From an uncultured Dehalococcoidia bacterium (GTDB taxonomy: Bacteria; Chloroflexota; Dehalococcoidia; Lucifugimonadales; UBA3495): DNA of 64,000 bases. This document shows, in pieces, positions 10,737-55,882 of the stretch. The translations under genes and the position numbers were made by a program. The notes below the pieces were generated by a model. That model was not told where the DNA came from. It saw only the letters and a list, made by a program, of their open reading frames with translations, and made no database searches. Position 1 is the stretch's first letter. The number at the start of each line of letters is the position of its first letter. The stretch covers positions 3,600,768 to 3,664,767 of the forward strand of contig OY282456.1 in NCBI GenBank assembly GCA_958296225.1, given 5' to 3'.

Positions 10737-10776
10737 AATTGCCTCGTTACACTGCGGTTTTGACCGTCTCCAATAT

Positions 10777-11843: not shown

Positions 11844-11987
11844 GGTAGCGTTGCAATTTAGGTGGTTGCACTTTGCTGTCATGCCGGCGCCAGCCGGAAT
11901 CCACCAAATCCCAATCGGAAAAATCCTGTCCATCCTGTCCATCGCTGTAAAAAACGGACTCAAACCACCTGAATTGCAACGTTGCCC
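11844..11987. mobile_element. MITE, diverged subfamily (144 bp)
   Basis: Ends GGTAGCGTTGCAATTTAGGTGGTTGCAC and reverse complement GGGCAACGTTGCAATTCAGGTGGTTTGAG. Same AGGTGG core as the main family. Confidence 0.6.
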
Positions 11988-12146
11988 AAGGGTTACGAAT
12001 TTACCGGGAGGGGTCGGATAAACGGGATCATACCGGTTACGCGGGATAACGAACGATGGTCAAAGCCCAATGGGATTGACTTGTTAAATCATATGCCCTA
12101 TGCTTGGTATAGACATACAGCATACGGTTGCTTGATGGAGGCTAAA

Positions 12147-12866: not shown

Positions 12867-12911
12867 CCTGATTGAGTCGGGCAGCTTGGCGGCAGAAGCA
12901 GAGGCAGCCGT

Positions 12912-13337: not shown

Positions 13338-13347
13338 CGGGCCTTGC

Positions 13348-14907: not shown

Positions 14908-14976
14908 CGTCGCCCTCCCCGGCTGGCGCCGTCGTTCCATTAGTTGCCCCGGAATCATACACCGCGGCGACCGACA

Positions 14977-15006
14977 TTGTACAAAGCAGACCGACCTCCC
15001 TATAAT
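14977..15006 (+). promoter_or_regulatory. candidate sigma-70 type promoter TTGTAC-18 nt-TATAAT
   Basis: Lies in the divergent intergenic region between the D-aminoacylase and SufT-like genes, 34 nt upstream of ATG 15040. Confidence 0.35.
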
Positions 15007-15039
15007 GGCTGCAACTACCCATGCCGAAGGAGGCCAACC

Positions 15040-15348
15040 ATGCCGGGAACGGTAAATAGCGATGAAGTCTACGAAGCGCTCCGCACAGTCTATGACCCGG
15101 AAATCCCGGTCAACGTGGTGGACTTGGGCCTGATTTACGATGTGCAGGTCAGCGACGCCAACGACGTGTTCGTTCAGATGACCCTGACCTTCCCCGGCTG
15201 CGGCATGGGGCCGCACATCGCCCAGCAAGCCGAGTGGGCCATTCAGGACGTGGAAGGCGTCGAGGAAGTCAACATCGAACTGACTTTCGATCCGCCCTGG
15301 TCTCCCGACCTGATTAGCGAAGAAGCCCGCAATATGCTGGGTATCTAG
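15040..15348 (+). CDS. DUF59/MIP18-family Fe-S assembly protein (SufT-like)
   Basis: VYEALRTVYDPEIPVNVVDLGLIYDV...FPGCGMGP. AGGAGG 5 nt before ATG 15040. Confidence 0.85.
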   Translation: MPGTVNSDEVYEALRTVYDPEIPVNVVDLGLIYDVQVSDANDVFVQMTLTFPGCGMGPHIAQQAEWAIQDVEGVEEVNIELTFDPPWSPDLISEEARNMLGI

Positions 15349-15408
15349 GCAACGCCGCCATTCCCGCGCCAGCCGGAATGACCAAATCGGATTGGAGATT
15401 ACCGCACG

Positions 15409-16230
15409 ATGGCAACCCCGCAGCAGCCCAACGCTCAGCAGAACGCCCGCTTGCAGCAAATCCGACGCCAATGGGAGCAGAAGCGGCAGATTACCGACCG
15501 CCTCGCCGCCGTCCGCACCAAAATCGGCGTGTACAGCGGCAAGGGCGGCGTCGGCAAAACCACCGTCGCCTGCAACCTGGCTACCATCCTGGCCGCCCAG
15601 GGCGAGCGGGTGGGGTTGCTGGACGTGGACATCGATTGCCCCAACGTTACCCGCGTTATGGGCATCCTGGACAAACCCGACTACCGGGACGGTCAAATCA
15701 GCCCCGCCCAGGGCCACGGCGTCAAAGTGGTGTCCATGGCCTTTTTCCAGGAAAACGAGGACGAGGCCATCATCTGGCGCGGCCCGATGATTCACAACGC
15801 CATTAACCAGTTTCTGCAAGCCACCGATTGGGGCGAACTGGACTACCTCATCGTTGACTTGCCGCCGGGAACTTCGGACTCCCCGCTCACCGTGATGCAG
15901 ACGCTGCCCATGGACGGGTTCATCGTAGTCAGCACCCCCCAGGACCTGGCCATCATTGACGCCAAACGCTGCATCAATATGATTCGCAAGCTGAATCTGA
16001 ACGTCGTTGGCGTGGTCGAAAACTACTCCGGGGACATCTTCGGCGAAGGCGCCGGCCGCCAGCTGGCCGACGACATCGACGCCCCGTTCCTGGGCAGTAT
16101 GTCCCTGCGCGGGGCCTACCGCGACACCAGCCGCCCCACCGTGCTGGTAGATGAAACGGTCAGCAAAGAGTACGCCGCCGTAGCCGACCAGCTGCGACAT
16201 AGCCTGCAAGCCCTAGGCCTGGAAGCCTAG
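15409..16230 (+). CDS. Mrp/NBP35 (ApbC) family iron-sulfur cluster carrier ATPase
   Basis: Deviant Walker A GKGGVGKTTVACNLA, DVDIDCPN and DYLIVDLPPGTSD. Confidence 0.9.
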   Translation: MATPQQPNAQQNARLQQIRRQWEQKRQITDRLAAVRTKIGVYSGKGGVGKTTVACNLATILAAQGERVGLLDVDIDCPNVTRVMGILDKPDYRDGQISPAQGHGVKVVSMAFFQENEDEAIIWRGPMIHNAINQFLQATDWGELDYLIVDLPPGTSDSPLTVMQTLPMDGFIVVSTPQDLAIIDAKRCINMIRKLNLNVVGVVENYSGDIFGEGAGRQLADDIDAPFLGSMSLRGAYRDTSRPTVLVDETVSKEYAAVADQLRHSLQALGLEA

Positions 16231-16255
16231 CCAACTCCGGCGCTGTTCCAATTCG

Positions 16256-16282
16256 CAGGGGCAATCCTGGCGGTTGCCCCTG
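16256..16282. terminator. bidirectional hairpin between convergent mrp and accDA genes
   Basis: CAGGGGCAA-9 nt-TTGCCCCTG followed by TTTCGTG. Confidence 0.5.
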
Positions 16283-16306
16283 TTTCGTGCGCCGCCCGGG
16301 CGCTAC

Positions 16307-18151
<1,845 letters not shown>

Positions 18152-18373
18152 CTAGCCCCTCCTTTTAGTTGCCGAGAACTGGTTGCCGAAACGCCTGTGA
18201 CCGGCGCCGTTCGATTTCGTCCTGCTACGGTCGTTCTCCCGGCTCTTACGGTAAGGATTATATTGTACACAATCATTATTTCAACAATGTTGCCGCCCGT
18301 GACCGCCGGTTCGGGAAATCCCCGGGCAAGATGAAATTACGCCAGATACCCCCGTCCGTTGCGCGGCGGCTCC

Positions 18374-35041: not shown

Positions 35042-35443
35042 TTAAGGCCGCAATGCCGCCGGCGTAACGTCGGTTTGCGCGAAATCATTGCCCTTGAACA
35101 GCAGGGGCAACCCCCGCGCCGACGCCAGGGCGTAGGCGAAAGTATCGCCGAAATTGAGCTAGGCGGGGTGATTACGGCCCCGTCCATACCGTCGATAAGC
35201 ATCAGCGGCAACCCACAGCTGCGCCTCATCCGGCGGAACCAGGCGGACAAAGGGGCGGCCCAGAAAATGGACTGCGGCCTGGGAAACGGCGTCTCCTTTT
35301 CCCATAGCGACTATCATAAGTTCAACCGCCGTAGCGGTGGACACCAGCACATCTCCATCGCTTCGCATCGCAAGGTGAAACGACGGCCCTTCGTCTTCAT
35401 CCATCAGGACCGCCATTATCGCTGAAGTGTCTGCCACCATCAT
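35042..35443 (-). pseudogene. vapC: VapC (PIN) toxin interrupted by an in-frame TAG
   Basis: MMVADTSAIMAVL...GRGRNHPA[TAG at 35159-35161]LNFGDTFAYALASARGLPLLFKGNDFAQTDV. The reading frame continues unbroken to TAA at 35042. Confidence 0.8.
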
Positions 35444-35739
35444 TTGGGCAGTCCGTTCTCATCGTACAGTTCTTCCTGCCAGACTTTGGAGGGCGGATTA
35501 TTTTCGTCATATTCGTCAGGATGCTCCTCACGCCAACGACGGCCGGCCGCGCTTAAGAGTCTATACTCTTCTGCTATTTCTGTAGAAGTCATCTTGCGGC
35601 GCGGCGGGGGCGCTTTGGCCTCCAGGTCGTCCAGCGCCATTTTGAGCACTTGCTCCGTAGCGTCCGGCCCATCCAAGCCCAACCGCCGGGCCAAAGCGGC
35701 GATGCGGGCGGCGGTTTTGGGTTTCAGTGTGGCAGCCAC
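35440..35739 (-). CDS. VapB-type antitoxin
   Basis: 99-aa ORF whose stop overlaps the vapC start (ATGA). N-terminal TAARIAALARRLGLDGPDATEQVLKMAL is typical of VapB/Rv0623-like antitoxins. Confidence 0.65.
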   Translation of the reverse strand: MAATLKPKTAARIAALARRLGLDGPDATEQVLKMALDDLEAKAPPPRRKMTSTEIAEEYRLLSAAGRRWREEHPDEYDENNPPSKVWQEELYDENGLPK

Positions 35740-35828: not shown

Positions 35829-37179
35829 CTAGCCAGCGTGCTTTCTGAGCGACGCCCTAAATCGCCGCAAGGCCCTTCGTCGCTGGCGTTTGATACGCGA
35901 TGAACCCATTAATTTGGCGGACTTTTCCATGTAGCTGATAAAGTTGCCGCTGAACTTCTGGCGTGCCTTCCGAGCTCTAGCCTTTTTGCCACGGGTCGGC
36001 AGCTCCGAGTACATATTATAAAGTGCTTGTTGGCGGAGCGGCGCTCCGGGTTCGCGGCGAATTTCGGCTGCGCCGATAGCTTTTTTCAGCTTCCGGTGAT
36101 AGCGATGGATAGATGACGGACGGATTACCACATCAGTTCCGTTGAACATAAAGCCAAGATATTGTAGCTGGCGGTGTTGAGATAGTTCAGCGCTGTGCAA
36201 AATTTGCGTTTTCGGCTCGCTACGATTCAGCGATAAATGCTGCAATTCCTCGTCCAGTCTGCTCAACGCCTCGTCCCCGTAGCCACACGGTATGACCGCC
36301 AGAACATCGTCGCAGTACCTCCAGTACCGCCCGCCAAGCCCGGTTATCCATTCGTACATAGCCAAGTCCAAGTCGGCCATATACATATTGGACAGCAGAG
36401 GGCTGAGCTGCGTACCCTGCGGGATGCCCACTCCCTGCGATAAGCCGGGGTTGGGCTTTACCAAGCCACGCGGAAGGACTTTCTCGCGAAACTGCTTCGG
36501 CGTACATAACCGTTGCGGTTGATTCTCGCGCTTGGATCTCCCGAACATTCTGATACCAAACAGGTTGTAGATTTTATGGCGTTCAACAACGCTATACTTG
36601 GTAACAGCGTTGTACACAGCATAATGGTCGTCTGGCAGGCGTTCATTGTCGATGAAATGTCCTCAAATTGATTTCAGTTGCTTATGATTGATATTGTCGA
36701 AAAATGACTCCACGTCAGTAGCAATGATTTGATAGCCGGGGTTAGCCTTTATGAAGTCAAACGCTTCTTTGGCCAAGGTTATGTTGTTCACGACATTACG
36801 CCGAAAGGCTGTCACTGCCGTGTCCAATCCATTAAATTGCAGCCAGTTTTCGTAAGGGGCTTCAAGGAGAGATTTGTAGTATGCGAAAATATAGCCGTCC
36901 TTGTGGGCAGGATAGGCAATAGGGCGTTCTTTCGGATCTTTTATGAAAGGCGCCGGGCTTACCGCAAAGGCTTTTTTGATGCGCGGAGTGATGAGTGAGT
37001 AAGTTAGCAAAGGGTAGAACGGATGGCGCGCCACACGCTCCGCATTTCCAACGATAGAATCGTTGTGCCGCACTCCAGATAATGGAGGTAGCGAATTGAT
37101 GATTGAACTCGCCGTTGCTGTGTCCGCTCTGCGGATGTGCTATAACGGCGAACTCTATCGCCTGTGCGATAGATGACAT
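35829..37179 (-). pseudogene. reverse transcriptase (Abi/defence-type or unclassified bacterial RT) with in-frame TGA and probable N-terminal frameshift
   Basis: RT motifs KERPIAYPAHKDGYIFAYY (1/2), IATDVESFFDNINH (A), GIPQGTQLSPLLSNMYM (B), YWRYCDDVL (C) and LQYLGFMF (E-like). TGA at 36663-36665 is in frame (KSI*GHFIDNE). The upstream N-terminal part sits in another frame (track ORF 36862..37347). Region is A/T-richer by eye. Confidence 0.8.
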
Positions 37180-37565
37180 CGTTGTAACAGAACCCATGTC
37201 GATAATGCAACCGGAGGCGGCTAGTCGAGAGAATTGCGAAACTAGCGATGCGCCGGAGTAACGACCGAATTCGTCAAAAGCGCGACGGAATACGTTACAG
37301 AATCTGGGTCGTTCCTGCAGGGGCCACGGCCCACCAGTACACTGCAACCGCCCGCCGGGCTGCTACCAGGTTACGCCCGGCACGTAGAACATTGCTCCGA
37401 ATTTGCCGGCGCCGCCAGAGTTAGATCTCAGCCGCTCAGGCACTCGCAGTGGCACCCCGCAGCACTGCGCCGGCAACTGGGCGAACGGTTTTCCTCGCGA
37501 GCCCGCCCGGCGCGCCGCCGGTGTCTCGTCAGCGACGCCCCGCCGGCGCCGGGCATTACGCCGTC

Positions 37566-38940
37566 TTACCCCACCAGTCACAACAACCGCAGTCGGGATT
37601 CTGGCAGATCAACGCCGGCGGATGCTCGGCTTTCCCGCGCCGCGCTGGCGGCAGTTTCACCGTCATACGCCGCATCCCTACGTAGTCGTCGGATTTCAGG
37701 CGGGCCAACACCGTGGCCAGGTGCTACAGCCGCGACATCCTGACGTGCCGGCTCACTTTGGCCATCCCCTGGCGCTGGCGCCTGTTGAGCAACCGCGAGT
37801 GTTTCCCGCTGCGAAAGTAACGCTCAATTGCCGTCCGCATCCGGTAAATCCGTTGCCACTCGGCGGTAAAACCCGGCAGGATGCCGATAATCCGCAGCAA
37901 CTTGCCCGCCGGCTTTTCCCAAACCGCGTAGTCACAGCAGGCAGACCAGTGAACCTTACGTTGCAACTCGCAACCACTACCGGGACACCGGAACCGGTGT
38001 CTTCGCTCCAGGTCGGAACCCAGGTACTCCACCGGCTCACCGCCCAGGCAGGTAGGCCGACCATCGGCAGTGTAGATGCCGTCGTACAGCCGCCGGCCTT
38101 TATCGTCCTTACGCGGCCGCGGCGCCGCAACAATTGGAACGATGCCGTGGTCCACCAGGTGCTGCCGCCGTTCCTGTCCCGCGTAGGCTTTGTCGCCGAT
38201 GCCGTACTGCGGCGTCAGCCACGGATGCAACCGCCGGACTGCGGCCCGCAATTGGGGCAGCTGCGGCCCGTCGCCAGCGTTGGCCGGCAGGACGATGCCC
38301 GCCAGCGGGACACCGTAGTAAGCATCGCCGGCTTCGTGGACCTTGTAGCCGTAAAACAGCTCATCTTTTTTGGCGCTGCTCTGGTTCTTGGCCGTCCGGT
38401 GTCCCCAGCTGGCATCCTGGTCAGCAGGCACGCTGCGCTTGGGATTGCCGTAGGCGGCAATGTCCGTAGAGTCAAAGGCGATGTAATCGCCCAGTCGGGG
38501 CGCGTCGGCCGGTACGATGCCGGCGGCTCACAACCGCTCCAACTCGTCGCGGATTTCAACTATCACCCTGGCGGACGATGCTGGCGATGGCTTCCTGACG
38601 CGCGGTGAGCGCTTTCTTGAAGCGACTGTAGGCGCCGGCGCCGGGAGCCGGCTCCAAGCCACACACATCCAATAACACCGCTGGCGTCCAGCTCAGACAG
38701 GAAACGGCTAGCGTAGCGGATATTGAGGACGTGCTGCGGTAAGCAGGCACAGAGCTTTGGCATCGCGCAGTGGCCCTTGCGGCCGCCTTTCCGGTGCGGC
38801 GCATCCAGCGTTGCCGCCAGCGGTCCGGCGTGCTTTTGCACGGCCCCGATTATGCTGGCCAAAAAACGGTAGCCACTTCTTGGCACAGCTGAGGATAGTG
38901 ACGGCATTGGTGAATGGCCAGCCTGTTGCTGGTCAGCCAC
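37566..38940 (-). mobile_element. decayed IS4/IS5-superfamily insertion sequence (transposase in at least 3 frames with in-frame stops)
   Basis: DUF772-like N-terminus (GRKGHCAMPKLCACLPQHVLNIRYASRFLSEL, then in another frame CGLEPAPGAGAYSRFKKAL). DDE core YGYKVHEAGD...GIGDKAYAG...RMRTAIERYFRSGK. In-frame TGA after ELERL and TAG after MSRL. Confidence 0.65.
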
Positions 38941-39296
38941 CAGTTGCGAGTATTATCGCAAGCGGCCATCAGGGACGCTCCTCCACCAAAGGGCTCCAGT
39001 GGTTACAGAGGCTGTCGGAGGTAGTGACTCCGGCGGCCTCGCCGTTATTTCGCTACGCTTGACGGCCTTGCTCCAGGAAGAGCCTAGCCTATCAAAACGC
39101 TCGCCCTATACTACTAAAATAGTCTTGCCAATGCAAAAGGTTTTGGCGTTTTTCGCCTTGCTTTATGGAAACTCCAAGCGGACATCGTTCTGCAACCGCT
39201 GTCGTACCGGCTTCTTGCCGGCACTAGACTATAATGGTAGGCTAGTGTAGCAACGTGGCCCGTTGTCAAAGACACACCGACCACCAAAGGAGCTAC

Positions 39297-39491
39297 ATGA
39301 TGGCCTACGTCAAAATTGACGGCTTTCTCTGCGAGCGTTGCGCGCACCGCTGGATACTGAAGCAGCCGGGCCTGCCCGAACCCAAGGTCTGCCCCAAGTG
39401 CAAGAGCTACCAGTGGAACACGCCGCGGATGCGTCCGCCCCGGGCCAACCCCTACCGCAACGACCCGGCGCTGGCCCGCAAAGCCGCCTAA
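39297..39491 (+). CDS. small zinc-ribbon protein (about 64 aa)
   Basis: CERC...17 aa...CPKC four-Cys ribbon. AAGGAG (39287-39292) precedes ATG 39297/39300. 70 nt upstream of the helicase gene. A TATAAT lies at 39230-39235. Confidence 0.55.
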   Translation: MMAYVKIDGFLCERCAHRWILKQPGLPEPKVCPKCKSYQWNTPRMRPPRANPYRNDPALARKAA

Positions 39492-39561
39492 TCGCTGCTA
39501 TCGACGGGCAAACAGCCCGCAACTAGGCACCACCGCACCGCCCGTACATCGGAGGACGCTA

Positions 39562-42500
39562 ATGCCCAGCCTCCCGCACGTTTTGGACAACGAAACCTTC
39601 ACCGTAGCCGACCATCTGCGCCGCAACTTGCGCGCCGCCGACGAGTTCAACTTCGTCTCCGCCTACTTCACCATCTACGGCTACGAACTGCTGGCTGAGG
39701 AACTGGAAAGCGTCGGCGCAGTGCGCTTCCTGTTTGGGAACCCAACCTCCATAGAACAGGTGGACCCCGGAGCGCAGGAACCCAAGTCCTTCGAGCTGAC
39801 GGAGCAAGGCTTGACGCCCAACCACACGCTGCAGCAACGGCAACTGGCGCAGCGGTGCGCGGCCTGGGTTGCCCGCGATAGCGTGGCTATCCGCTCCGTC
39901 AGGCAGTCCAACTTTCTTCATGGCAAGCTGTACCTCACCGATGGGCCGGACGGTGCCGCCGGCGTAGTCGGCAGCTCCAACTTCACCAGGCGCGGGCTGG
40001 GCGGCAGCGGCCAGGCCAATCTGGAAATCAACCTGTCAACCGACGACGCCATCACGCTGTCCGAACTGCGGGAGTGGTTCAACCGCCTTTGGAATAACGA
40101 GCAACGCACGGAGGATGTCAAAGGGCGGGTACTGGATGCGCTGGCCCGCATCGGCGAGGACTACGCCCCGGAGCGGGTGTACTACAAAACCCTGTACGAG
40201 CTGTTCCGCAAGGACATTGCGGCTATGCAGGCCGGCGACGACGCCCTGAACGCCGCCGGATTTACCGGCAGCCAAATCTGGAACGCCCTCTACGAGTTCC
40301 AGAAAGACGGCGTCCGCAGCGTCATCGCCAAGCTGCGGGCGCACAACGGCTGCATCCTGGCCGACAGCGTGGGCCTGGGCAAAACCTACACCGCGCTGGC
40401 CGTCATCAAATACTGTGAGCTGCGCAACGAACGCGCGCTGGTGCTTTGTCCCAAAAAGTTGTGGGAAAACTGGTCGCTGTACCAGGCCGCCAACAATCAT
40501 ATTCAAAATCCTTTCGGCGATGACCGCTTCGGCTACACCCTGCTGGCTCATACCGATTTGTCGCGGGATTCCGGCATGGCCGGCAACGTTGACCTCGCTA
40601 ACTTCAATTGGGCCAACTACGATTTGGTGGTCATTGACGAGTCGCACAACTTCCGCAATGACGAAGGCCGACGCTACCGGCGGCTGCTGGACGAAGTTAT
40701 CGCCAGCGGCGCGCGCACCAAAGTGCTGATGCTGTCGGCCACGCCGGTGAACACTTCGCTGGCTGATTTGCGGAATCAGATTTATCTGATGACCGAAAAG
40801 CGGGAGGATGCCTTCCGCCAAAGCCTGGGTGTGAGCAGCATTCGCGGCGTGATGGCGGCGGCGCAAAAGCAGTTCCGGGAATGGGAAACCGAGCAGGGCC
40901 GGCGCGCCCAGCGGGATAAATCCCGGCTGCTGGACAACCTGGGCGCCGACTTCCTGCGGCTGCTGGACGGCGTGTCCATATCCCGCTCCCGCCGGCTGGT
41001 GGAACAGTTCTACGCCGCCGAAATGGAGCGCATCGGGCAGTTCCCCGAACAGGCCCCTCCGGTCAACGAACACCCGCCCACCGACCTGGCCGGCAGCCTG
41101 TCCTACCAAGACCTGGCCGAACTCATTGGCCGGTTCCGGCTGGCCCTCTACCAGCCCTCGGCCTATGTCACCGACCCCAAACGGCTGGCGGAACTGGCTG
41201 CAACCCGCCAGCAGTACAACTTCAACCAGCAGGACAGCGAACGCTTCCTCATCGGAATGATGCGGACTAACTTCCTCAAGCGGCTGGAGAGCTCGGCCCA
41301 CTCGCTCACCCTGACGCTGCAACGCACTATCGGCAAGATTGACCGCCTGCTGGCCCGGATTGACCGCTACCAAAAGGGCAATCCAGCCACGGCCAACCTG
41401 TCCGGCTCGGACATTCTGCCCGACAACGATGATGACGACGAGGAGTTTTTCGTCAACCGGGGCCGCAATCCCTATCGCTTGTCAGAGCTGGACTTGCCCC
41501 GCTGGCAGGCCGATTTGCGGCAGGACCAGGCCACCCTTTCGGCCGCGCTGCAACAGGTCAAAGCCGTTACCCCGGAACGGGATGGCAAGCTGGCCGCAAT
41601 CAATGACGCCATCCGCGACAAGGTGGAACGCCCAACCTCCGACCGGGAGGGCAACCCCAACCGCAAGCTGCTGGTATTCACCACCTTCAAAGATACGGCC
41701 GAATATCTGTACGATAACCTGGCCGGCCTGGCCAAAAAGCTGGGCATCAACATCGCCATGGTATCCGGCGCGGAAACCCGTACCGCCGCGGGCGCCAACA
41801 ACTTCAACGCCATCCTCGCCAACTTTGCGCCCGCGGCCCGCCAACGCCGGGCCGATGCCGCCGGCAACGCCGACATTGACCTGCTGATTGCCACCGACTG
41901 CATTTCCGAAGGGCAGAACTTGCAGGACTGTGACACCGTCATCAACTACGACATCCACTGGAACCCGGTGCGCCTCATCCAGCGGTTCGGGCGCATTGAC
42001 CGCATCGGCAGCCGCAGCCGCACCGTGCGGATGGTGAACTACTGGCCCACATCCGATATGGACGCCTACCTGCAACTGCGCAGCCGGGTGCAGGCGCGCA
42101 TGGCCCTGGCCGACATCGCCGCCAGCGGCGATGAGGACCCCTTTACCGAAGCGGATGCCCGGCTGGAATTGAATTTCCGCAACGAACAGCTGCGGCGGCT
42201 CCGCCAGGAAGCCCTCACCCTGGAGGATTTGGACGATGCCCCCACCCTGGGGGACTTTACCCTCGACCACTTCATCGCCCAGCTGCTGCGCTACCTGGAA
42301 CGCAACCGGGATGAACTGGAAGCCATGCCCCCCGGCGTCTATGCCGTTGCCGCAGCGGGCCCAACCGCCCCCGGCGTAATCTTTTGCCTGCGCCAGCGCA
42401 ACGCCGGCGACGCCGGCAACCCGCAGCGCCAGTACGCCAGCCCCCGGCATCCTTACTACTTCGTCTATATCCTGCCCGACGGCGCCATCCGCTACGGCTG

Positions 42501-42801
42501 CGCCAGCCTGCAACAAACGCTGGCCGTCTTTGAGGCGGCGGCGGTGGGGCAAACCGTCCCCATTACCGAACTCTGCGACCGCTTTGACCGGGAAACCGGC
42601 CAGGGCCGCAATATGGCCCTTTACGACCGGCTGCTCACCAGCGCCATCGCTCAAATCCTCCAGGCCCACGCCGGAACGCAGGCCGACCTGCTGGGCCGCG
42701 ACGGCGCGCGGGATTTCAGGCTGCCGCCGGCGGTGGAAAACCCCACCGCCGCAACCGACTTCGAGCTGGTAACCTGGCTGGTCATCAAGGGCGACGACTA
42801 A
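39562..42801 (+). CDS. PLD-family (single HKD) nuclease domain fused to SNF2-family SF2 helicase/translocase
   Basis: HGKLYLTD...GSSNFTRRGL (HxKx4D...GSxN). Helicase motifs DSVGLGKT (I), VVIDESHNFRN (II, DExH), MLSATPVN (III), LVFTTF (IV), DCISEGQNL (V) and QRFGRIDRIGS (VI). GGAGG 6 nt before the ATG. Confidence 0.9.
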   Translation: MPSLPHVLDNETFTVADHLRRNLRAADEFNFVSAYFTIYGYELLAEELESVGAVRFLFGNPTSIEQVDPGAQEPKSFELTEQGLTPNHTLQQRQLAQRCAAWVARDSVAIRSVRQSNFLHGKLYLTDGPDGAAGVVGSSNFTRRGLGGSGQANLEINLSTDDAITLSELREWFNRLWNNEQRTEDVKGRVLDALARIGEDYAPERVYYKTLYELFRKDIAAMQAGDDALNAAGFTGSQIWNALYEFQKDGVRSVIAKLRAHNGCILADSVGLGKTYTALAVIKYCELRNERALVLCPKKLWENWSLYQAANNHIQNPFGDDRFGYTLLAHTDLSRDSGMAGNVDLANFNWANYDLVVIDESHNFRNDEGRRYRRLLDEVIASGARTKVLMLSATPVNTSLADLRNQIYLMTEKREDAFRQSLGVSSIRGVMAAAQKQFREWETEQGRRAQRDKSRLLDNLGADFLRLLDGVSISRSRRLVEQFYAAEMERIGQFPEQAPPVNEHPPTDLAGSLSYQDLAELIGRFRLALYQPSAYVTDPKRLAELAATRQQYNFNQQDSERFLIGMMRTNFLKRLESSAHSLTLTLQRTIGKIDRLLARIDRYQKGNPATANLSGSDILPDNDDDDEEFFVNRGRNPYRLSELDLPRWQADLRQDQATLSAALQQVKAVTPERDGKLAAINDAIRDKVERPTSDREGNPNRKLLVFTTFKDTAEYLYDNLAGLAKKLGINIAMVSGAETRTAAGANNFNAILANFAPAARQRRADAAGNADIDLLIATDCISEGQNLQDCDTVINYDIHWNPVRLIQRFGRIDRIGSRSRTVRMVNYWPTSDMDAYLQLRSRVQARMALADIAASGDEDPFTEADARLELNFRNEQLRRLRQEALTLEDLDDAPTLGDFTLDHFIAQLLRYLERNRDELEAMPPGVYAVAAAGPTAPGVIFCLRQRNAGDAGNPQRQYASPRHPYYFVYILPDGAIRYGCASLQQTLAVFEAAAVGQTVPITELCDRFDRETGQGRNMALYDRLLTSAIAQILQAHAGTQADLLGRDGARDFRLPPAVENPTAATDFELVTWLVIKGDD

Positions 42802-42817
42802 CGAGGGGAAACGAACT

Positions 42818-45800
42818 ATGAACGGACTTATCCCGGAACGCATCCGCGCCGCTTTGCAGCCGCTGGCCGGCGGCGATTTCGCGGCCGCCGCGCCCAGCCT
42901 CCTGGGGGAATTGGGCTACCGCAGTACGCGCACCCTGCCCGGCCAGTCGGGGGACGCCGGCGATTTTGTCCGGCAGTTCCGGGCGGCCAGCCCGGGTACG
43001 CAATCCGAGCGGGATTTCCTGGGGGAAGCCCAGTCCGTCCATATCCTCTTTCAGCTCACCAACGCCGAAATCGCCCAGCCGGAGCAAAAAGCCTTGTTCG
43101 ACGGCGGCGGGTTTGACACGGGCAACGCCCAGAGCTTCCTCTTTGCCGCCGTGGCATTGCGCGGCAGCGCCTACCCCCGCGGCCGGTATGCCGCCTTTAC
43201 CCGCGAGCTCAACAAACGCTTCCCGCATCCCATGGTCGTCCTGTTCCGCACCGCCAGCGGACGAATTACGCTGGCCTTTGTCCATCGCCGCCCCAACCGC
43301 CACCATCCCAACCGGGACGTGCTGGGCAGCGTTTCGCTCATCCGCGAAATCAACCCCGCCGACCCGCACCGGGCGCACCGGGACATCCTGGCCGAGCTGT
43401 CGCTGCCGGAACGTCTGCGATGGATGACGGCCCACGGCAAGCCGCACAACTTTGACGGCCTGCTGGAATCCTGGCTGGCAGCCCTGGACACTGAGGAACT
43501 GAACCGGCAGTTTTACCGGGAGCTGTTCCGGTGGTTCGAGGGCGCCGTCGCGACGGCCCGCTTTCCGGCCGGGGCGGCCCGGACGCTGCCCCCGGAGGAA
43601 CACGTCATCCGGCTGATTACCCGTCTGATGTTCGTGTGGTTCATCAAGGAGAAGGGGCTGGCCGCCGCAGACCTGTTCATTGAGCATCGGGTAGCGCAGC
43701 TGCTGCCAGACTATGACCGGGACGGCGGCGATTCCTACTACCGCGCCGTGCTGCAAAACCTGTTTTTCGCCACCCTGAACACCGAAATCAAAGACCGCCG
43801 TTTCAGCCGGCAAACGCGCGACGACCATCGCAACTTTTCCGTGTACCGCTACCGGGACGAAATCGCGCAGCCGGACGCTCTGCGCGCGCTGTTCGCGGCG
43901 ACACCCTTCATCAACGGCGGCCTCTTTGACTGCCTGGACAGCTTTGACGCCCAGGGCGCCGGCGGCGTCCGCGTGGACTGCTTTACCGACAATCCCCAGC
44001 ACCGGGCCGGCTACTCCATCCCCAACCGCCTGTTTTTCGGCGACGACGCCAGCCCCGGCCTGATTGACCTGTTCAACCGCTACAAGTTCACCGTGGAGGA
44101 AAACACCCCCGCCGAGCAGGAAGTCGCCCTGGACCCGGAACTGCTGGGCAAGGTCTTTGAGAACCTGCTGGCCGCCTTCAACCCGGAGACCAGGGAAAAC
44201 GCGCGCAAGGAAACCGGCTCGTACTACACGCCGCGCGCCGTGGTGGACTATATGGTGGACGAGGCCCTGACGGCCACGCTGGCGCAAAAGGCGTTTTCAG
44301 ATGACGGCGACGGGCAAGACCGCTTGCGCTATCTGCTGGACTACGGCGACGCTTTCGCTGACGCGGAAACCCTGTTCACTCCGCCGGAACGGGAGGCCGT
44401 CGTGCGCGCCGTCGCCGGCCTCAAAGCGCTGGACCCGGCCGTGGGCTCCGGCGCCTTTCCTATGGGCATCCTGCACAAGCTGACGCTGGCCCTGCGCCGG
44501 CTGGACCCGGACAACCGCATCTGGGAACGCATCCAGCGGGAACAGGCCGGCATCCGCGCCGACGCCGCCTTTGACACCGACGACCGGGCCGCCCGCGACG
44601 CCGAACTGGACGAAATCAGCGCCACTTTTGAGCGCTACCGCGATTCCGACTTCGGGCGCAAGCTGTACCTCATCCAGAACAGCATCTACGGGGTGGACAT
44701 CCAGTCCATCGCCACGCAGCTTGCCAGGCTGCGCTTTTTCATCTCCCTGGCCATTGAGCAGCAGCCCAACGACAACCCGGCGGACAACTACGGCATCAAG
44801 CCGCTGCCCAACCTGGAAACGCGGTTCGTGGCGGCGGACACGCTGCTGGCCCTGGCACGGCCGGCGCAGCGGACGCTGGGACAGACCGACGCCGTGGTGC
44901 GGCTGGAGCGGGAACTGGCCGCCAACCGGGAACGGCACTTCCACGCCAGCAGCCGGGCCGTCAAGCTGGCCTGCCGGAAGGAGGATCAACGCCTGCGGGA
45001 ACGGCTGGCCCAGGCACTGCAAACCGCCGGCTTTTCCGCAGGGTCGGCCAGCCAAATCGCCGCCTGGGAACCCTTTGACCAGAGCGCGGACGCCGCCGGC
45101 TGGTTTGACGCCGAGTATATGTTCGGCGTGGCCGACGGTTTTGACGTGGTGATTGGCAACCCGCCGTACATCAATGTTGAAAACCTGTCCGCCCGGATGC
45201 GGGATTATCTGTTCGCTAATTACGAAACCTGCATGATGCGTACAGATATTTACATCGCATTTCTGGAAAAATCCTTGTCCATCCTCAACGACAACGGGTT
45301 GATGTGCTTCATCATTCCCGCCGCTTTCACGACGCAGCAGTACGCCACCAAAATGCGCCAACGGCTGATTGCCAACCACCATGTCCGCGAGTTCGTGGAC
45401 GCCAGCAGCTACCGCATTTTCGAGAACGCCGTCGTGTTCAATGTCGTCTTGCAAGTTACGAAAAGTCGGAGCGACGCGCCGACACGGGTACGCATCCACG
45501 CCAGCAGTGCTGATTTTGACAACCGCAGTGGTACGGAGTTCACCGTCGACCAGAATCGCTTCGCCACGCTGAAAGACGCCCGCTTTGATACCAACCCGGA
45601 CATCGCCGGCGCCGTTGTCATCAAGGACAAAGTCTGGCGCAACGCCGTCCGCTTCGACCAGATTTGCCTGGTAGCCTACGGCGCGCGACTCAATCACCGC
45701 ACCGCAAAAATTGGCAAAGCCCACTATATCAGCGATACGCTCATCGCCGGTGGCAAGCCTTTCTGCGAAGGCAAGAACATTGAACGCTACTCATTTTCCC

Positions 45801-46468
45801 AGGATGGCTGGCTGAACTACCAACCCAGCGAACATTACAACCCGATGTTCCCCGAACTATTCGAAAGCGAAAAGCTGATGTTCATCAGAATTGTTAAAGA
45901 CAAGCTGCGGTTCGCCTACGACGAGAAGGGCTTTTACAACAGCCACACCGTAGTCAACTGCGTGCGGCTGGACTTGTTGGCCGGAGCAACACACCGGACT
46001 GCGGTATCAGCGCGCAAAGGCGCTGACTTGGCCCTCGCCAGCAGGTTTGACTATAAGTACCTGCTGGCGGTGCTAAACTCGCAATTCGTCAACTGGTACT
46101 TCCTAAACTTCCTGAGCGACAACCTGAATTTCTACCCCAACGACGCCAAGCAGCTGCCCATACCCAAAGCCACCGCCGCGCAGCAGCGCCCCATCATCCG
46201 GCTGGTAGAGCGGATATTGCAGGCCAAAGCGTCCAACCCGGCGGCGGACACCGGCGCGCTGGAGGCGGAAATCGACTGGCTGGTCTATGACCTGTACGGG
46301 CTAACCAACGAGGAGACGGCGGTGGTGGCCGATTTGTTCTGGGAAGGAACGCAGAGCGAAGCGGAGGAAGACCAGGCGCTGCTGCGGGCAATGGCCGAGT
46401 CCGACGTCAATGACCGGGTAAGCCTGTCCGAAGTGCGGGCAATCCTGCGGGCGCCCGATGACCGTTGA
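42818..46468 (+). CDS. large gamma-class N6-adenine DNA methyltransferase with C-terminal target-recognition region (Eco57I/Type IIG-like architecture, no intact nuclease motif seen)
   Basis: LDPAVGSGAFPMGIL (motif I) lies upstream of VIGNPPYI (motif IV, nt 45158-45169). LVYDLYGLTNEE is the C-terminal element typical of this family. 16-nt gap after the helicase gene. Confidence 0.88.
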   Translation: MNGLIPERIRAALQPLAGGDFAAAAPSLLGELGYRSTRTLPGQSGDAGDFVRQFRAASPGTQSERDFLGEAQSVHILFQLTNAEIAQPEQKALFDGGGFDTGNAQSFLFAAVALRGSAYPRGRYAAFTRELNKRFPHPMVVLFRTASGRITLAFVHRRPNRHHPNRDVLGSVSLIREINPADPHRAHRDILAELSLPERLRWMTAHGKPHNFDGLLESWLAALDTEELNRQFYRELFRWFEGAVATARFPAGAARTLPPEEHVIRLITRLMFVWFIKEKGLAAADLFIEHRVAQLLPDYDRDGGDSYYRAVLQNLFFATLNTEIKDRRFSRQTRDDHRNFSVYRYRDEIAQPDALRALFAATPFINGGLFDCLDSFDAQGAGGVRVDCFTDNPQHRAGYSIPNRLFFGDDASPGLIDLFNRYKFTVEENTPAEQEVALDPELLGKVFENLLAAFNPETRENARKETGSYYTPRAVVDYMVDEALTATLAQKAFSDDGDGQDRLRYLLDYGDAFADAETLFTPPEREAVVRAVAGLKALDPAVGSGAFPMGILHKLTLALRRLDPDNRIWERIQREQAGIRADAAFDTDDRAARDAELDEISATFERYRDSDFGRKLYLIQNSIYGVDIQSIATQLARLRFFISLAIEQQPNDNPADNYGIKPLPNLETRFVAADTLLALARPAQRTLGQTDAVVRLERELAANRERHFHASSRAVKLACRKEDQRLRERLAQALQTAGFSAGSASQIAAWEPFDQSADAAGWFDAEYMFGVADGFDVVIGNPPYINVENLSARMRDYLFANYETCMMRTDIYIAFLEKSLSILNDNGLMCFIIPAAFTTQQYATKMRQRLIANHHVREFVDASSYRIFENAVVFNVVLQVTKSRSDAPTRVRIHASSADFDNRSGTEFTVDQNRFATLKDARFDTNPDIAGAVVIKDKVWRNAVRFDQICLVAYGARLNHRTAKIGKAHYISDTLIAGGKPFCEGKNIERYSFSQDGWLNYQPSEHYNPMFPELFESEKLMFIRIVKDKLRFAYDEKGFYNSHTVVNCVRLDLLAGATHRTAVSARKGADLALASRFDYKYLLAVLNSQFVNWYFLNFLSDNLNFYPNDAKQLPIPKATAAQQRPIIRLVERILQAKASNPAADTGALEAEIDWLVYDLYGLTNEETAVVADLFWEGTQSEAEEDQALLRAMAESDVNDRVSLSEVRAILRAPDDR

Positions 46469-46810: not shown

Positions 46811-46840
46811 GGGCCTGACCGCTAGGGAAGTGGCGGCGGC

Positions 46841-46880
46841 GTGGCGGTGTGGCGGTGTGGCGGTGTGGCGGTGTGGCGGT
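46841..46880. repeat. tandem octamer (GTGGCGGT) x5
   Basis: Five perfect head-to-tail copies plus a partial GTGG, abutting TGgTATGAT (46882-46890). Confidence 0.95.
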
Positions 46881-46919
46881 GTGGTATGATGGGGTAAATC
46901 CACAGCGGGGGTGATGCCG

Positions 46920-47129: not shown

Positions 47130-47135
47130 TTAAAT

Positions 47136-47176
47136 GCGATTGAGCCGCAGCAGACCTAATGCTGCGGCTCAATCGC
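47136..47176 (+). terminator. perfect 17-bp stem hairpin (GCGATTGAGCCGCAGCA-7 nt-TGCTGCGGCTCAATCGC)
   Basis: Begins 7 nt after the stop of the small basic ORF and ends 51 nt before the FRG gene ATG. The U-tract is weak. Confidence 0.5.
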
Positions 47177-47227
47177 AACATCCTGATTTCAGGCCAAGAT
47201 TCCAATTGCCGGGGGCTAATTATCAAT

Positions 47228-48466
47228 ATGCAGAATAATTCTGAAGCCGCTACCCAATCTGGCACATCCGAACTGGACGCAGTCCTGCAAGTGGTTAACG
47301 AGCTGGCTCGGAAGTCAGCCAGCGGCAACTATATTTACCGGGGTGAACCGGAGTGCTATGACCAAGTATCGTCGAGCCTCTACCGGGATTTTCCAGTTGA
47401 TTTACCGTTGGGCTTCAATGTCGATGCCTTACAAGAAGAAGATTTGGTGGAGGCTCGGAAATTCACGTTTGAGACCGACGATTTCGCGATTTTGACTGAA
47501 CTCCAACACTATGGCGGTAAGACCAATTTGATTGACTTCACGGCGGATTATCTCATCGCCCTTTTCTTTGCCTGCGACGGTAAGCATCTAAAGGACGGCA
47601 GGGTCGTTTTACTGGAGCGGGAAGGAGAGATGGACGACCATATTTACGGGCCCCGCAATCCGATTAATCGCGTCATCGCGCAAAAGAGCGTATTTGTGCG
47701 GCCTCCACTGGGCTACGTTGAGCCGGATGATATTGTCATCATTCCAAACAGCCTCAAGCGTTTTATGCTGGATTACTTGCGGAAATCTCATGGGATTTCC
47801 GCACAAACCATCTATAACGACCTGCTCGGATTCGCCCGGTATCGGGAAATCCACCAGGATGCTCTTAGGCATTTCCATACCGCTTTTACGAATGAGATGA
47901 ATGGGGATTACCAAAGTGCGATAAACTCTTACACAAAATCACTCGACCTCAACCCATCGGTGTTTGTCTATAACAATCGCGGCATAGCATACGCCTCCAT
48001 AAACGATTACGACAGTGCCATCGGCGACTTCAATCAAGCCATCGCATTAGACCCGGACGATGCGGCGGCTTACAACAGTCGCGGTCTTGCTTACGCCTCC
48101 ATAGGCGATTATGAACACGCTATTGAGGACTTTGACCAATCTATCGCATTAGACCCTGACGATGCCGATAGTTACAGCAATCGCGGTCTTGCTTACCTTA
48201 GCAAAGGTGATTATAACCAAGCCATCACCGACTTTAGCCAATCTATCACACTGGACCCGGATATTGCCAATAATTACGTCAATCGCGGCGAGGCCTGGTT
48301 GCATTTGTGCGAGTGGGATAACGCCAGGGAAGACTTGGGTACTGCCGATGATATGGGCGTAGATATTGTGCAATCATTCCGCAACGACTACGAAAACGTT
48401 GCCGACTTTGCGCAGCGCAACGGCATCACCCTGCCGGCTGATATTGCCGAAATGTTGGACGGTTAA
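47228..48466 (+). CDS. FRG-domain protein fused to C-terminal TPR repeats
   Basis: YIYRGEPECYDQVSSSLYR and LQHYGGKTNLIDFTADYLIALFFAC (FRG signatures). Then 4-5 TPR units (AIxDFxQxIxLDPD...YxNRGLAY). Start at ATG 47228, because the track start lies inside the upstream hairpin. Gene is A/T-richer by eye. Confidence 0.8.
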   Translation: MQNNSEAATQSGTSELDAVLQVVNELARKSASGNYIYRGEPECYDQVSSSLYRDFPVDLPLGFNVDALQEEDLVEARKFTFETDDFAILTELQHYGGKTNLIDFTADYLIALFFACDGKHLKDGRVVLLEREGEMDDHIYGPRNPINRVIAQKSVFVRPPLGYVEPDDIVIIPNSLKRFMLDYLRKSHGISAQTIYNDLLGFARYREIHQDALRHFHTAFTNEMNGDYQSAINSYTKSLDLNPSVFVYNNRGIAYASINDYDSAIGDFNQAIALDPDDAAAYNSRGLAYASIGDYEHAIEDFDQSIALDPDDADSYSNRGLAYLSKGDYNQAITDFSQSITLDPDIANNYVNRGEAWLHLCEWDNAREDLGTADDMGVDIVQSFRNDYENVADFAQRNGITLPADIAEMLDG

Positions 48467-49810: not shown

Positions 49811-50454
49811 CTATAGCGGGTGGGCAGTGTTAGCCAGTGACTCCAAGCGGGCCAGCCAAGCGTTGAAACGGGGGCGCTGGGAGCGGATGGTATCCAGCCC
49901 GATTTGCTCAGCCAGCAATGGCCCATGAACGTGCTTGATATACTTAGGTATCTCCTGTGCAATTCGTTTGCTGGGGGCCGTTGCCGGGCTGTCATTGATG
50001 TCTTCGGGCGTCTGGAATCGGGTACGGATTTCCCGCAACGCGGTCATGGAATTGTCCGATATGTCGGGCAATCCGGCAAAGCCTCTGAAATCGGAGAACA
50101 GCAGGCTCTCAAATTCGTACTGCTGCACATAAGAGAACAGTCGCGATTGGTCCCAGTCGCGGCCCATTTTCTGGTTGACCGCTTCATCGATGCGCTGCTG
50201 CAATTCATCGGGTGTTGCATCACCCTTGTCGCGGAACCCGTAAAAATCTACCAAAGATGTGAAGAAGCCGAAATCCCAAGGGGAACTTAGCAAATTCGCC
50301 ATATCCGACGCCAATCGCGCAACGGTTACGTCACCGCCGCTATAACCGAGCAAGACGGGCTCCGGTTCCACTCCTCTAGTCCGCAGGTAACCGGCCAGGA
50401 CTCTATTGATGAATTCCTCTTCCGTTCGCCTCGTAGAGAAATCTCGGCTTCCAT
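49811..50454 (-). pseudogene. DUF4276-family gene with N-terminal frameshift
   Basis: LVDFYGF, YVQQYEFESLLFSD, EDINDSPATAPSKRI and RPRFNAWLARLE match DUF4276. The N-terminus MEAEISLRGE / TEEEFINRVLAGYL is split between two frames near nt 50420. Confidence 0.65.
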
Positions 50455-50748
50455 CCGAGGCGTAATGCGGTTGCCGCCAAACAGCTGGTCGTCGGCGCCG
50501 CCGTGCAACTCCACAAAGTCGCCCAACCTGCGGGAGCGGAGCATCCAGCTCAGCATCTCAAAGAACCGGATGAAGTTGGACTTGCCAGAGCCGTTGGCCC
50601 CAATCAGAACCATCGCACTGGGCAAATCGGTAAGCTCCACATCAAACAGCGACCGGAAGCCGCGAATGCGGACGGCGTCAATTGCTGCCGGCCGGTTGCG
50701 AGTATCCGAGGCAGCGTCCGGTGGTTCGGGTACGGTTAGAACAGTCAT
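50455..50748 (-). pseudogene. remnant (about 98 aa, P-loop only) of an AAA/ABC-like ATPase normally partnered with DUF4276
   Basis: IDAVRIRGFRSLFDVELTDLPSAMVLIGANGSGKSNFIRFFEML. The rest of the ATPase is missing and the frame runs straight into the DUF4276 start. Confidence 0.6.
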
Positions 50749-50884
50749 ATCGGGCCTTGTGTCAAGCGTTGGCAAAACGTTGCGGTAAGCATTATAGCAA
50801 AGTCGGGCATCTCTGAAGCGGCGCAAAATCTGCTATCATAGCGACGTATATTCAGCCCCAGAATGGCGGCCCGGAGGTGGAGTT

Positions 50885-54961: not shown

Positions 54962-55882
54962 ATGCACTGCGCGGCTGGGAAGCCCAAAGCGCCGCCCATC
55001 AAGACGCAGGGCATCAAGACCAAGCTGGCGCCGTTCATCGCCAGCCGCGTGGAATGGGACCGGCGGGGACGATGGGTAGAGCCGTTTCTGGGTTCCGGGG
55101 CGGTTTTGCTGAACGTCCGGCCGCCCCGGGCTTTGGCGGCCGATTCCTGCGCGCCCATCATCAATTTTTACCGGGCGTTGCAGAGCGGGCAGATTACCGC
55201 CGCCCGTGTGGAGACGTTTCTGCAACGCGAAGGGGAACGGCTGCAAACCGAAGGGGCGAGCCGATACTATGCAATCCGGGAACGATTTAACGATACCGGC
55301 AACCCGCTGGATTTTCTGTTCGTAAGCCGGGCGTGTTTCAACGGGCTGATGCGCTTTAACCGGAAAGGGCGGTTCAACACGCCGTTCTGCAAAAAGCCGG
55401 AGCGGTTTCGCCCGGCGTACATTACGAAAATCTGCAATCAGGTGCAATGGGCCAGCGACGCGATGCGGGGGCGGGATTGGGAGTTTGCTCGCGTTGACTG
55501 GCGAGAGACGCTGGCCGGCGTTGGAGAGGAGGATTTTATCTATGCCGACCCGCCCTATGCCGGGCGGCACGCCGACTATTACAACGCCTGGGGCGAGACT
55601 GACGGGTTGGAACTGGCGCAGGCGCTCAAAGGGGCGCCGTGCCGGTTCCTGTGCTCAACGTGGATGGGAAACCGATTCCGGCGCAACGAGCGGCTGTTGG
55701 AGTGGTTCGCCGGCTACCGGATTGAAACCTTTGAGCATTACTATCATCTGGGTGCTACTGAATCGCTACGCCACGCGATGCAGGAGGGGCTGGTAATCGG
55801 GTTTGGGAATGACTGTTCTAGCGCTTGGGTCGGTAATCCCAAGGGTCAAGACAAGCGTCGTAGAGAGTTTGGTCCATCCTGA
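54962..55882 (+). CDS. Dam-family (D12 class) N6-adenine DNA methyltransferase
   Basis: EPFLGSGAVLLN (motif I) and FIYADPPYAGR (DPPY). The last ~25 aa run antisense into the NYN gene. Confidence 0.8.
   Translation: MHCAAGKPKAPPIKTQGIKTKLAPFIASRVEWDRRGRWVEPFLGSGAVLLNVRPPRALAADSCAPIINFYRALQSGQITAARVETFLQREGERLQTEGASRYYAIRERFNDTGNPLDFLFVSRACFNGLMRFNRKGRFNTPFCKKPERFRPAYITKICNQVQWASDAMRGRDWEFARVDWRETLAGVGEEDFIYADPPYAGRHADYYNAWGETDGLELAQALKGAPCRFLCSTWMGNRFRRNERLLEWFAGYRIETFEHYYHLGATESLRHAMQEGLVIGFGNDCSSAWVGNPKGQDKRRREFGPS

Follow-up and report, generated by a model that had tools for sequence, protein, structure and literature searches.

A PLD-SNF2 helicase-nuclease and a Type IIG-like methyltransferase form a near-obligate gene pair, proposed to act as an ATP-dependent restriction-modification-like defense system

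Restriction-modification (RM) systems of Type III and Type ISP place methylation and target specificity in one part and use a superfamily 2 (SF2) motor together with a nuclease for ATP-dependent restriction; ATP-dependent restriction is also carried out by CglI/NgoAVII and SauUSI, in which an SF2 motor is combined with a nuclease of the phospholipase D (PLD) family. Class 1 DISARM employs an SNF2 helicase, a large N6-adenine methyltransferase, and a PLD nuclease, with DrmD and DrmMI encoded as neighbors. Fusions of HKD nucleases to Swi2/Snf2 helicases have been described as effectors of DUF499-centered systems (Bell et al. 2020, PMC7641849), as PbeA (PMC10853773), and as predicted effectors of Type-2 BREX-related (BR)/Hma systems (Rakesh & Krishnan 2026, PMC12839542, where SauUSI is cited for HKD nucleases). 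In the present study, we analyzed a 64,000-nt stretch of contig OY282456.1 from an uncultured Dehalococcoidia bacterium (hereafter, the window, meaning the full stretch), in which 2 adjacent genes, numbered 2 and 3, encode, respectively, a fusion of a single-HKD PLD nuclease with an SNF2 helicase and a gamma-class N6-adenine methyltransferase with a C-terminal target recognition domain (TRD). Gene 2 shares the PLD-SF2 combination with CglI/NgoAVII and SauUSI, which differ from it in subunit organization and in reading DNA through B3-like or SRA-like domains, and for which we know of no dedicated Type IIG-like methyltransferase partner. Judging from sequence comparisons, genes 2 and 3 probably constitute, although we hold this with measured confidence, a two-subunit, ATP-dependent RM-like defense system that follows the Type III/ISP logic with different parts.

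Genes 2 and 3 are real, intact coding sequences (Table 1). They are separated by 16 nt, with gene 2 following a small upstream gene (gene 1) after 70 nt. Shine-Dalgarno-like sequences stand 5' of the starts of genes 1, 2, and 3 (AAGGAG, GGAGG, and GAGGGG, respectively), and the GC content at third codon positions of genes 2 and 3 (0.81-0.82) is at the level of the host genes. A terminator-like hairpin upstream of gene 1, identified by consensus match only, likely sets the 5' limit of the transcription unit. The open reading frames (ORFs), their strand, the spacers, and the ribosome-binding signals are as described in the first-pass annotation, and the motifs quoted there (HGKLYLTD, GSSNFT, DSVGLGKT, DESH, SAT, QRFGRIDRIGS, DPAVGSGAF, GNPPY, and LVYDLYGLT) are all present. 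The domain calls made there were likewise correct: Pfam recognizes PLDc_2 (residues 87-177, 7e-11), SNF2-rel_dom, ResIII, and Helicase_C in gene 2, and Eco57I (7.6e-34), N6_Mtase, and TaqI_C (residues 981-1112, 1.2e-12) in gene 3.

The PLD domain of gene 2 additionally matches Pfam RE_NgoFVII (2.4e-5). In the SNF2 core, the N-lobe (residues 243-405) holds GLGKT, DESH, and SAT, Helicase_C (residues 697-816) holds QRFGRIDRIGS, and none of motifs I, II, III, and VI varies among 76 homologues; the C-terminal region has no match other than to the C-terminal portion of the PADLOC HKD+Snf2 profile. The latter (PDLC01075 'HKD+Snf2') is the top PADLOC model for gene 2 (1.6e-109), the DrmD, BrxH, HmaA, and ZacC models reaching only 1e-26 to 1e-33 (DrmD, approximately 1e-33), and all NCBIfam scores fall under their cut-offs (DISARM_DrmD, 144 bits against 610; DrmD_b, 98 against 950; 'phospholipD_antiphage', 162 against 1100). 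The protein collection contains more than 8000 gene 2 homologues, the 120 best of which are 67-80% identical to it, and neither protein of the pair has a close relative among solved structures. For gene 3, motif I and NPPY show little or no variation among 43 homologues, and the best solved relative of the methyltransferase core is the adenine methyltransferase 7lni. Its top PADLOC model is REase_MTase_IIG (4.7e-60), followed by PglX (2e-20) and DrmMI (1e-14), and all NCBIfam PglX models score far under cut-off (BREX_1_MTaseX, 82.6 bits against 500; others lower). Taken alone, gene 3 would probably be called a Type IIG RM enzyme by the PADLOC pipeline. The first-pass annotation had recognized no named system here; indeed, no curated model claims either protein, yet the pair had already been listed, without a system name, in a table of contexts of programmed inversions (Milman et al. 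2023, PMC9881135).

The 2 genes are tightly linked well beyond the window. A scan of one genome per species recovered at least 599 encoded gene 2 relatives, and we analyzed the best 80 loci, which represent more than 20 phyla. In approximately 65 of them, a gene-3-type methyltransferase adjoins the gene 2 homologue, and it lies directly downstream on the same strand in all linked loci but 3 (L008, L014, and L066), where it is located upstream. The reverse survey, which used an alignment of the first 520 residues of gene 3 as query, gave 80 metagenome loci; a gene 2 homologue is positioned immediately upstream on the same strand in 73 of the 74 informative ones, the other 6 being too short upstream, and a single methyltransferase (L099) has no gene 2 there. 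In a relative with a 79% identical gene 2, the pair stands by itself in other genomic surroundings, beside genes matching the Pfam RsmD-type family PF03602 and the cytidylyltransferase family PF01467. Thus, of the trio proposed at first pass as a module, genes 2 and 3 are near-obligately linked, whereas the Zn-ribbon gene (gene 1) is not shared.

A comparison with the sister clade of helicases bears on the function of the PLD domain. In the clade of two-gene loci, H120, K122, and N140 of the HKD site are intact in 63 of 64 members, the remaining one having K replaced by R. In the second clade, the helicase is a homologue of gene 2 from end to end, at 37-40% identity. DUF4391 comes next in all 11 cases, and in loci long enough it is joined by a Type III Mod (an N6_N4 methyltransferase) and by a Type III Res that brings an RE_endonuc domain of its own, partners that the pair in the window does not have. 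None of the 11 full-length members of this clade has kept the H/K/N residues, in whose place stand Q-R-D, N-N-P, and others. As far as sequences can tell, the HKD site is kept exactly where it would be the sole recognizable nuclease of the operon, and no other indirect evidence points as strongly to gene 2 as the restriction nuclease of the pair. The Type III-linked arrangement comprises the genome loci L065-L080, the plasmid loci L082 and L083, and most of L173-L252. It is common on plasmids, where it was seen in both of the 2 records inspected among the 134 with a gene 2 relative, and dominates among the best 80 of the 91 viral-contig relatives, 4 of which are of the two-gene type. We found no paper on the operon of PLD-dead SNF2, DUF4391, Mod, and Res, and DUF4391 is essentially unwritten about. 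Some of these loci also have a WYL regulator upstream, or an OLD-type nuclease and DUF2130 as an insertion.

The gene 3 family resembles Type IIG enzymes (Eco57I, MmeI, and Cj0031) in its methyltransferase core, its TaqI_C-type TRD, and the C-terminal helix of the LVYDLYGLT type, and in having methyltransferase and TRD in one polypeptide. It departs from them in its near-obligate helicase-nuclease partner and in its N-terminus, where an apparently unrelated conserved domain occupies the place of the nuclease. Residues 1-440 are strongly conserved and have no Pfam or NCBIfam match, and residue 221 is the first that the PADLOC Type IIG profiles cover. The AlphaFold2 model of residues 1-210 is confident (pLDDT 85.6), and a Foldseek search with it produced no match in PDB (best E 0.07) or BFVD (best E 0.02); it replaced a search with a 520-residue model, multi-domain and partly of low confidence, which had returned only noise. 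Conservation among homologues revealed 5 invariant residues (Q79, R121, R158, R166, and H187) and no PD-(D/E)xK or D...(D/E)xK set in this domain. Family searches, motif search, profile coverage, and fold search are therefore at one with the first-pass view that gene 3 contains no recognizable nuclease. Among 1.84 billion representatives, the domain forms 748 clusters at 50% identity, in all of which it is found at the protein N-terminus, and full-length members measure 1100-1360 aa. We note that the top 120 matches to the first 520 residues (P0121-P0240) are all only 463-905 aa long, which could reflect fragmentary assemblies, the candidate selection of the search, or frequent disruption or phase variation.

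These observations also frame the most serious alternative, namely that gene 3 is a self-sufficient Type IIG enzyme with a divergent or novel N-terminal nuclease, to which gene 2 is an accessory or back-up in the manner of BrxHII. We regard this as unlikely, although the top PADLOC models, the description of such methyltransferases as Type II RM enzymes homologous to Cj0031 (Milman et al., PMC9881135), the conservation of the first 440 residues with their invariant polar positions, and the L099 methyltransferase that has no gene 2 upstream all speak for it. It sits poorly with an N-terminal domain that is left uncovered by Type IIG profiles over residues 1-220 and that shows neither a family match, nor PD-(D/E)xK, nor a structural match to a confident model. 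It sits poorly, too, with the retention of the HKD site in gene 2 just where no other nuclease occurs, and linkage in 73 of 74 loci is closer than an optional accessory would lead one to expect.

The division of labor between 2 proteins is further suggested by their patterns of divergence. Mean pairwise identity within the gene 3 family is 0.21 in the TRD against 0.41-0.53 in the N-terminal and motif-I parts. Divergence of gene 2 correlates with that of gene 3 residues 1-440 (r = 0.50, reached in 0 of 2000 permutations), weakly with that of the methyltransferase core (r = 0.25), and not with that of the TRD (r = -0.07), a pattern that fits co-inheritance or co-evolution of the motor and the N-terminal module, with specificity being freely exchanged. 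The first-pass proposal that cleavage and translocation reside in gene 2 and modification and specificity in gene 3 thereby gains support from the linkage, the hypervariable TRD, and the pattern of HKD retention.

Under the two-subunit reading, we infer complex formation, methylation sensitivity, translocation, cleavage, and protection against phages, and the system would operate as follows. The variable C-terminal TRD of gene 3 would read a short DNA sequence, and its methyltransferase would modify the target adenine at N6 in an S-adenosylmethionine-dependent reaction, thereby marking host DNA as self. The N-terminal domain, which takes the place of the Type IIG nuclease domain, would dock, activate, or license gene 2, a predicted SNF2-type translocase on double-stranded DNA and the bearer of the sole recognizable nuclease, the single-HKD PLD domain. 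The active site of PLD enzymes is composed of 2 HKD halves, as in Nuc and BfiI; cleavage should therefore need 2 gene 2 molecules, and cutting may take place after these meet, for instance, upon translocating from 2 unmethylated sites. Such a two-molecule requirement would also spare hemimethylated host DNA after replication.

Collectively, the comparisons with described systems suggest, as the best-supported placement, that the pair works like a Type III/ISP RM system and is evolutionarily closest to components of Type-2 BR and class 1 DISARM. At the same time, it does not carry the defining genes of Type III, Type ISP, Type-2 BR, or class 1 DISARM. The likeness to Type III and Type ISP leads one to expect one-strand methylation and two-site control. 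Unlike in those systems, however, the motor belongs to the SNF2 family and the nuclease is of the PLD type rather than PD-(D/E)xK or Mrr. Gene 3 is a gamma-class Eco57I/N6_Mtase enzyme and not a beta-class Mod, gene 2 is devoid of RE_endonuc, and the single polypeptide of Type ISP (LlaGI/LlaBIII) is here represented by 2 ORFs. With Type-2 BR/Hma, the pair shares an HKD endonuclease N-terminal to Swi2/Snf2, an N6-adenine methyltransferase partner, and a predicted RM-like logic (PMC12839542). BR systems are defined by the AAA+ ATPase DUF499, and Type 2 by a stand-alone DUF3780 in 98% of taxa (PMC12839542); neither was found in the window or among the conserved neighbor clusters of the two-gene clade, and the PADLOC HmaA match of gene 2 is weak (7.7e-26). 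Membership in Type-2 BR (Hma) was accordingly rejected in spite of the HKD-Snf2 fusion. The sole DUF499 locus fetched (L171, retrieved with gene 1 as the query) lacks a gene 2 homologue, and its methyltransferase is a DUF1156/N6_N4_Mtase enzyme rather than one of the Eco57I/TaqI_C type with the N-terminal domain of gene 3; a BR-type methyltransferase paired with a gene 2 relative was not seen in any fetched locus.

The PLD and SNF2 domains that class 1 DISARM keeps apart are fused in gene 2. As the first-pass annotation had stated, the core genes of DISARM and BREX are absent from the window: DrmA, DrmB (DUF1998), PglZ, BrxC, DUF499, and DUF3780 were not found among the scanned ORFs, and PglZ, BrxC, DrmA, and DrmB were also not found among the clustered neighbors of the fetched two-gene-clade loci. 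Class 1 DISARM was thus rejected for want of DrmA/DrmB and with DrmD and DrmMI similarity as low as noted above, and BREX for want of PglZ/BrxC in the window ORFs and with PglX models under cut-off. This bears on a second alternative, somewhat less probable again than a self-sufficient Type IIG enzyme, in which the pair excludes invaders in the manner of BREX or DISARM: methylation would denote self, the SNF2 protein would block replication of the invader or remodel it in the absence of classical site-triggered cleavage, and the part played by the PLD domain would be secondary or would not involve DNA. Such a reading fits the weak relationships of gene 3 to PglX and DrmMI and of gene 2 to DrmD and BrxHII, as well as the placement of HKD-SNF2 proteins in BREX-related systems by the literature, but it is at odds with the missing core genes, and an active phosphodiesterase is what one would expect from an HKD site that is retained selectively.

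Several considerations weigh against a two-subunit RM system. BREX and DISARM, which also combine a methyltransferase with SNF2, do not behave as simple cleaving RM systems. Co-divergence is also expected from plain co-inheritance of neighboring genes and is no proof of contact between their products, and the two-site or dimerization step derives from general PLD enzymology rather than from gene 2 itself. The conserved N-terminal region of gene 3 may harbor a cryptic or novel nuclease, as the absence of a fold match does not equal inactivity. In the literature, we came across no name, survey, or test of the two-gene system; a search for a named combination of PLD-SNF2 with an Eco57I-type enzyme yielded only the table entry of Milman et al. 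and the DUF499-centered work. Finally, approximately one-sixth of the loci hold additional nuclease or ATPase genes within or after the pair, and the pair may therefore not always act alone. In 14 of 80 loci (e.g., L002, L006, L015, and L019), the gene right after the methyltransferase, approximately 3.7-5 kb downstream of the helicase end, encodes a protein of approximately 550 aa that combines an SMC_N-type ATPase head with a tail of weak HEPN similarity. A YhcG/DUF1016 nuclease is located between or after the pair genes in 9 of 80 loci, and a DUF4062-HATPase_c_4-Fic_C protein in or after the pair in 7. FRG and/or TPR proteins (PADLOC PDC-S15-like) occur within a few kb of the pair in 6 loci, namely the window, L008, L014, L017, L020 (Poribacteria), and L003 (Latescibacterota), a recurrence that may stem from lineage or from a loose association.

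There is a slim chance that the pair has no immune role and is instead an epigenetic regulator, a DNA-repair or remodeling pair, or a selfish addiction module. Phase-variable Type IIG-like methyltransferases such as Cj0031 can indeed be regulators, and the pair has no known phenotype; nevertheless, its patchy spread over more than 20 phyla in differing contexts, the hypervariable TRD, the defense-gene neighbors, and the occasional presence on viral contigs fit defense, and an addiction-like property would be compatible with RM systems anyway. Least probable, we think, is that gene 2 is a modification-dependent (Type IV) nuclease directed at foreign modified DNA, with gene 3 unrelated or counterbalancing: the order of PLD, SF2, and C-terminal domains is like that of SauUSI, but no SauUSI sequence match was obtained among solved structures at E<=0.001, and strict pairing with one methyltransferase family that has a dedicated N-terminal domain would be left unexplained.

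Taking the two-subunit RM-like reading one step further, the pair could well represent a distinct, widespread, and unnamed class of ATP-dependent RM systems, although we would stop short of calling this probable. In such a class, a Type IIG-like methyltransferase would have swapped its nuclease for a docking domain, restriction would be performed by a dimerizing PLD-SNF2 protein, and the helicase lineage would later have lost its HKD site upon recruitment to Type III Mod/Res operons. If true, hundreds of species in more than 20 phyla carry an RM-like defense whose genes are now annotated as encoding a "Type IIG enzyme" and a "helicase-related protein," and PLD with SNF2 would be a third nuclease-motor solution among ATP-dependent restriction enzymes. 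The helicase lineage would then document, as a visible series in evolution, the passage of a motor protein from one RM system to another, with the dead-HKD sister clade as a natural control, and the pair a minimal two-protein model for the SNF2-methyltransferase coupling in BREX, DISARM, and Hma, which are hard to dissect. Given the hypervariable TRD, the family is also a possible source of new m6A specificities.

Table 1. Coordinates of the gene pair, its domains and motifs, and neighboring features in the 64,000-nt window
Feature	Positions	Strand	Description
Gene 2	39562-42801	+	1079 aa; PLD(HKD)-SNF2 helicase-nuclease; proposed restriction/translocase subunit
Gene 2, PLD/HKD nuclease domain	39820-40092	+	Single domain; residues 87-177
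Gene 2, H120-x-K122	39919-39942	+	Motif HGKLYLTD of the PLD domain
Gene 2, GSSNFT	39970-39987	+	PLD domain; holds N140
Gene 2, SNF2 ATPase core	40288-42009	+	Pfam; N-lobe, long insert, Helicase_C
Gene 2, C-terminal region	42112-42798	+	Residues 851-1079; moderate conservation
Gene 3	42818-46468	+	1216 aa; gamma-class N6-adenine methyltransferase with C-terminal TRD; proposed modification/specificity subunit
Gene 3, N-terminal alpha/beta domain	42818-43447	+	Residues 1-210; family-specific; proposed coupling to gene 2
Gene 3, conserved helical region	43448-44137	+	Residues 211-440; Type IIG profile similarity begins here
Gene 3, methyltransferase core	44138-45427	+	Residues 441-870
Gene 3, motif I	44432-44458	+	DPAVGSGAF
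Gene 3, motif IV	45158-45169	+	NPPY
Gene 3, hypervariable TRD	45428-46177	+	TaqI_C type (Pfam TaqI_C)
Gene 1	39297-39491	+	64 aa counted from ATG; ORF opens at GTG 39255
Terminator-like hairpin	39008-39040	+	5' of gene 1; 13-bp stem, T-rich tail; consensus match only
PIN toxin and putative antitoxin	35159-35739		
DRT2 reverse transcriptase	35829-37073	-	Two ORFs; PADLOC
FRG+TPR gene	47159-48466		Pfam; matches PADLOC PDC-S15
HEC-01 pair	49811-50826	-	DUF4276 and ATPase; PADLOC

Gene 1 was included in the module by the first-pass annotation, a proposal that did not hold. Its product has a CxxC...CxxC arrangement and only sub-threshold Zn-ribbon matches in Pfam. A tblastn search returned no match in either set of 80 loci, genomic or metagenomic, no CxxC...CxxC ORF was found upstream of gene 2 in 69 loci, barring one off-frame match judged spurious, and a counterpart is missing even at the relative whose gene 2 is 79% identical. 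Gene 1 homologues form only 19 clusters (69-89% identity) and head at least 6 unrelated defense cargos in loci L164-L172 (gene at approximately 8001-9225), often beside a DDE transposase: a Dnd-like cluster (L164), an MmeI-type methyltransferase with a TRD shufflon, an integrase, and a distant PLD-SNF2 (L165), an Mrr-helicase with a methyltransferase (L169), a DUF499 system (L171), a TIR protein (L172), and DUF4238 (L168 and L170). With unrelated cargos and no counterpart at other pair loci, gene 1 was rejected as a component of the pair; it was also rejected as a passenger of the neighboring insertion sequence, as DNA homology between the gene 1 loci is limited to the gene 1 coding sequence. 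By these comparisons, gene 1 appears as a lineage-restricted small gene at the edges of defense cargos and could serve as a portable regulator or else mark a defense-cargo hotspot. In L165, the methyltransferase of the MmeI/Eco57I type (locus positions 9343-18192, which also span, next in order, an inverted partial TRD, the integrase, and the PLD-SNF2 gene) has no gene-3-type N-terminal domain, the PLD-SNF2 protein is longer and 28% identical to gene 2, and the locus resembles the inversion loci of Milman et al. In the window itself, a TRD shufflon or programmed inversion was rejected, there being no long inverted repeats and no recombinase nearby.

The region from 35.1 to 50.8 kb is a decaying defense island around the intact pair. 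The defense-island context described at first pass is borne out as to its contents, with a reverse transcriptase, a toxin-antitoxin module, an FRG gene, and ATPase-DUF4276 all present, but the reverse transcriptase is split and the ATPase truncated. Of the 2 DRT2 ORFs, that at 36663-37073 corresponds to profile positions 97-218 and that at 35829-36617 to positions 237-466 of 502, the split representing either a pseudogene or a frameshift. In HEC-01, the DUF4276 component is nearly complete, and the ATPase ORF covers approximately the first 87 of 363 profile positions; because of this truncation, the system has probably decayed. A 401-aa ORF at 37403-38608 was discounted as probably the shadow of a transposase remnant on the opposite strand. 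The island also contains a threonine-aldolase-like gene (Pfam). Between gene 3 and the FRG+TPR gene, positions 46827-46890 consist of an 8-bp tandem repeat (GGCGGTGT, approximately 7 copies), and a perfect 18-bp inverted repeat with a 7-nt spacer (47135-47177), which could be an operator or a hairpin, extends across the start codon of the FRG+TPR gene (47159). No tRNA gene was found in the window. The flanks of the island are of housekeeping character (lspA, a pseudouridine synthase gene, glnS, a D12-class methyltransferase gene, and gltX). The glnS product (GlnRS) belongs to a 90%-identity cluster named from Geodia barretti and a Chloroflexota MAG, which suggests that the host is probably a Chloroflexota bacterium associated with sponges. 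The D12-class (Dam-like) N6-adenine methyltransferase (54962-55882), encoded between glnS and gltX without an adjacent nuclease gene, may be an orphan methyltransferase.

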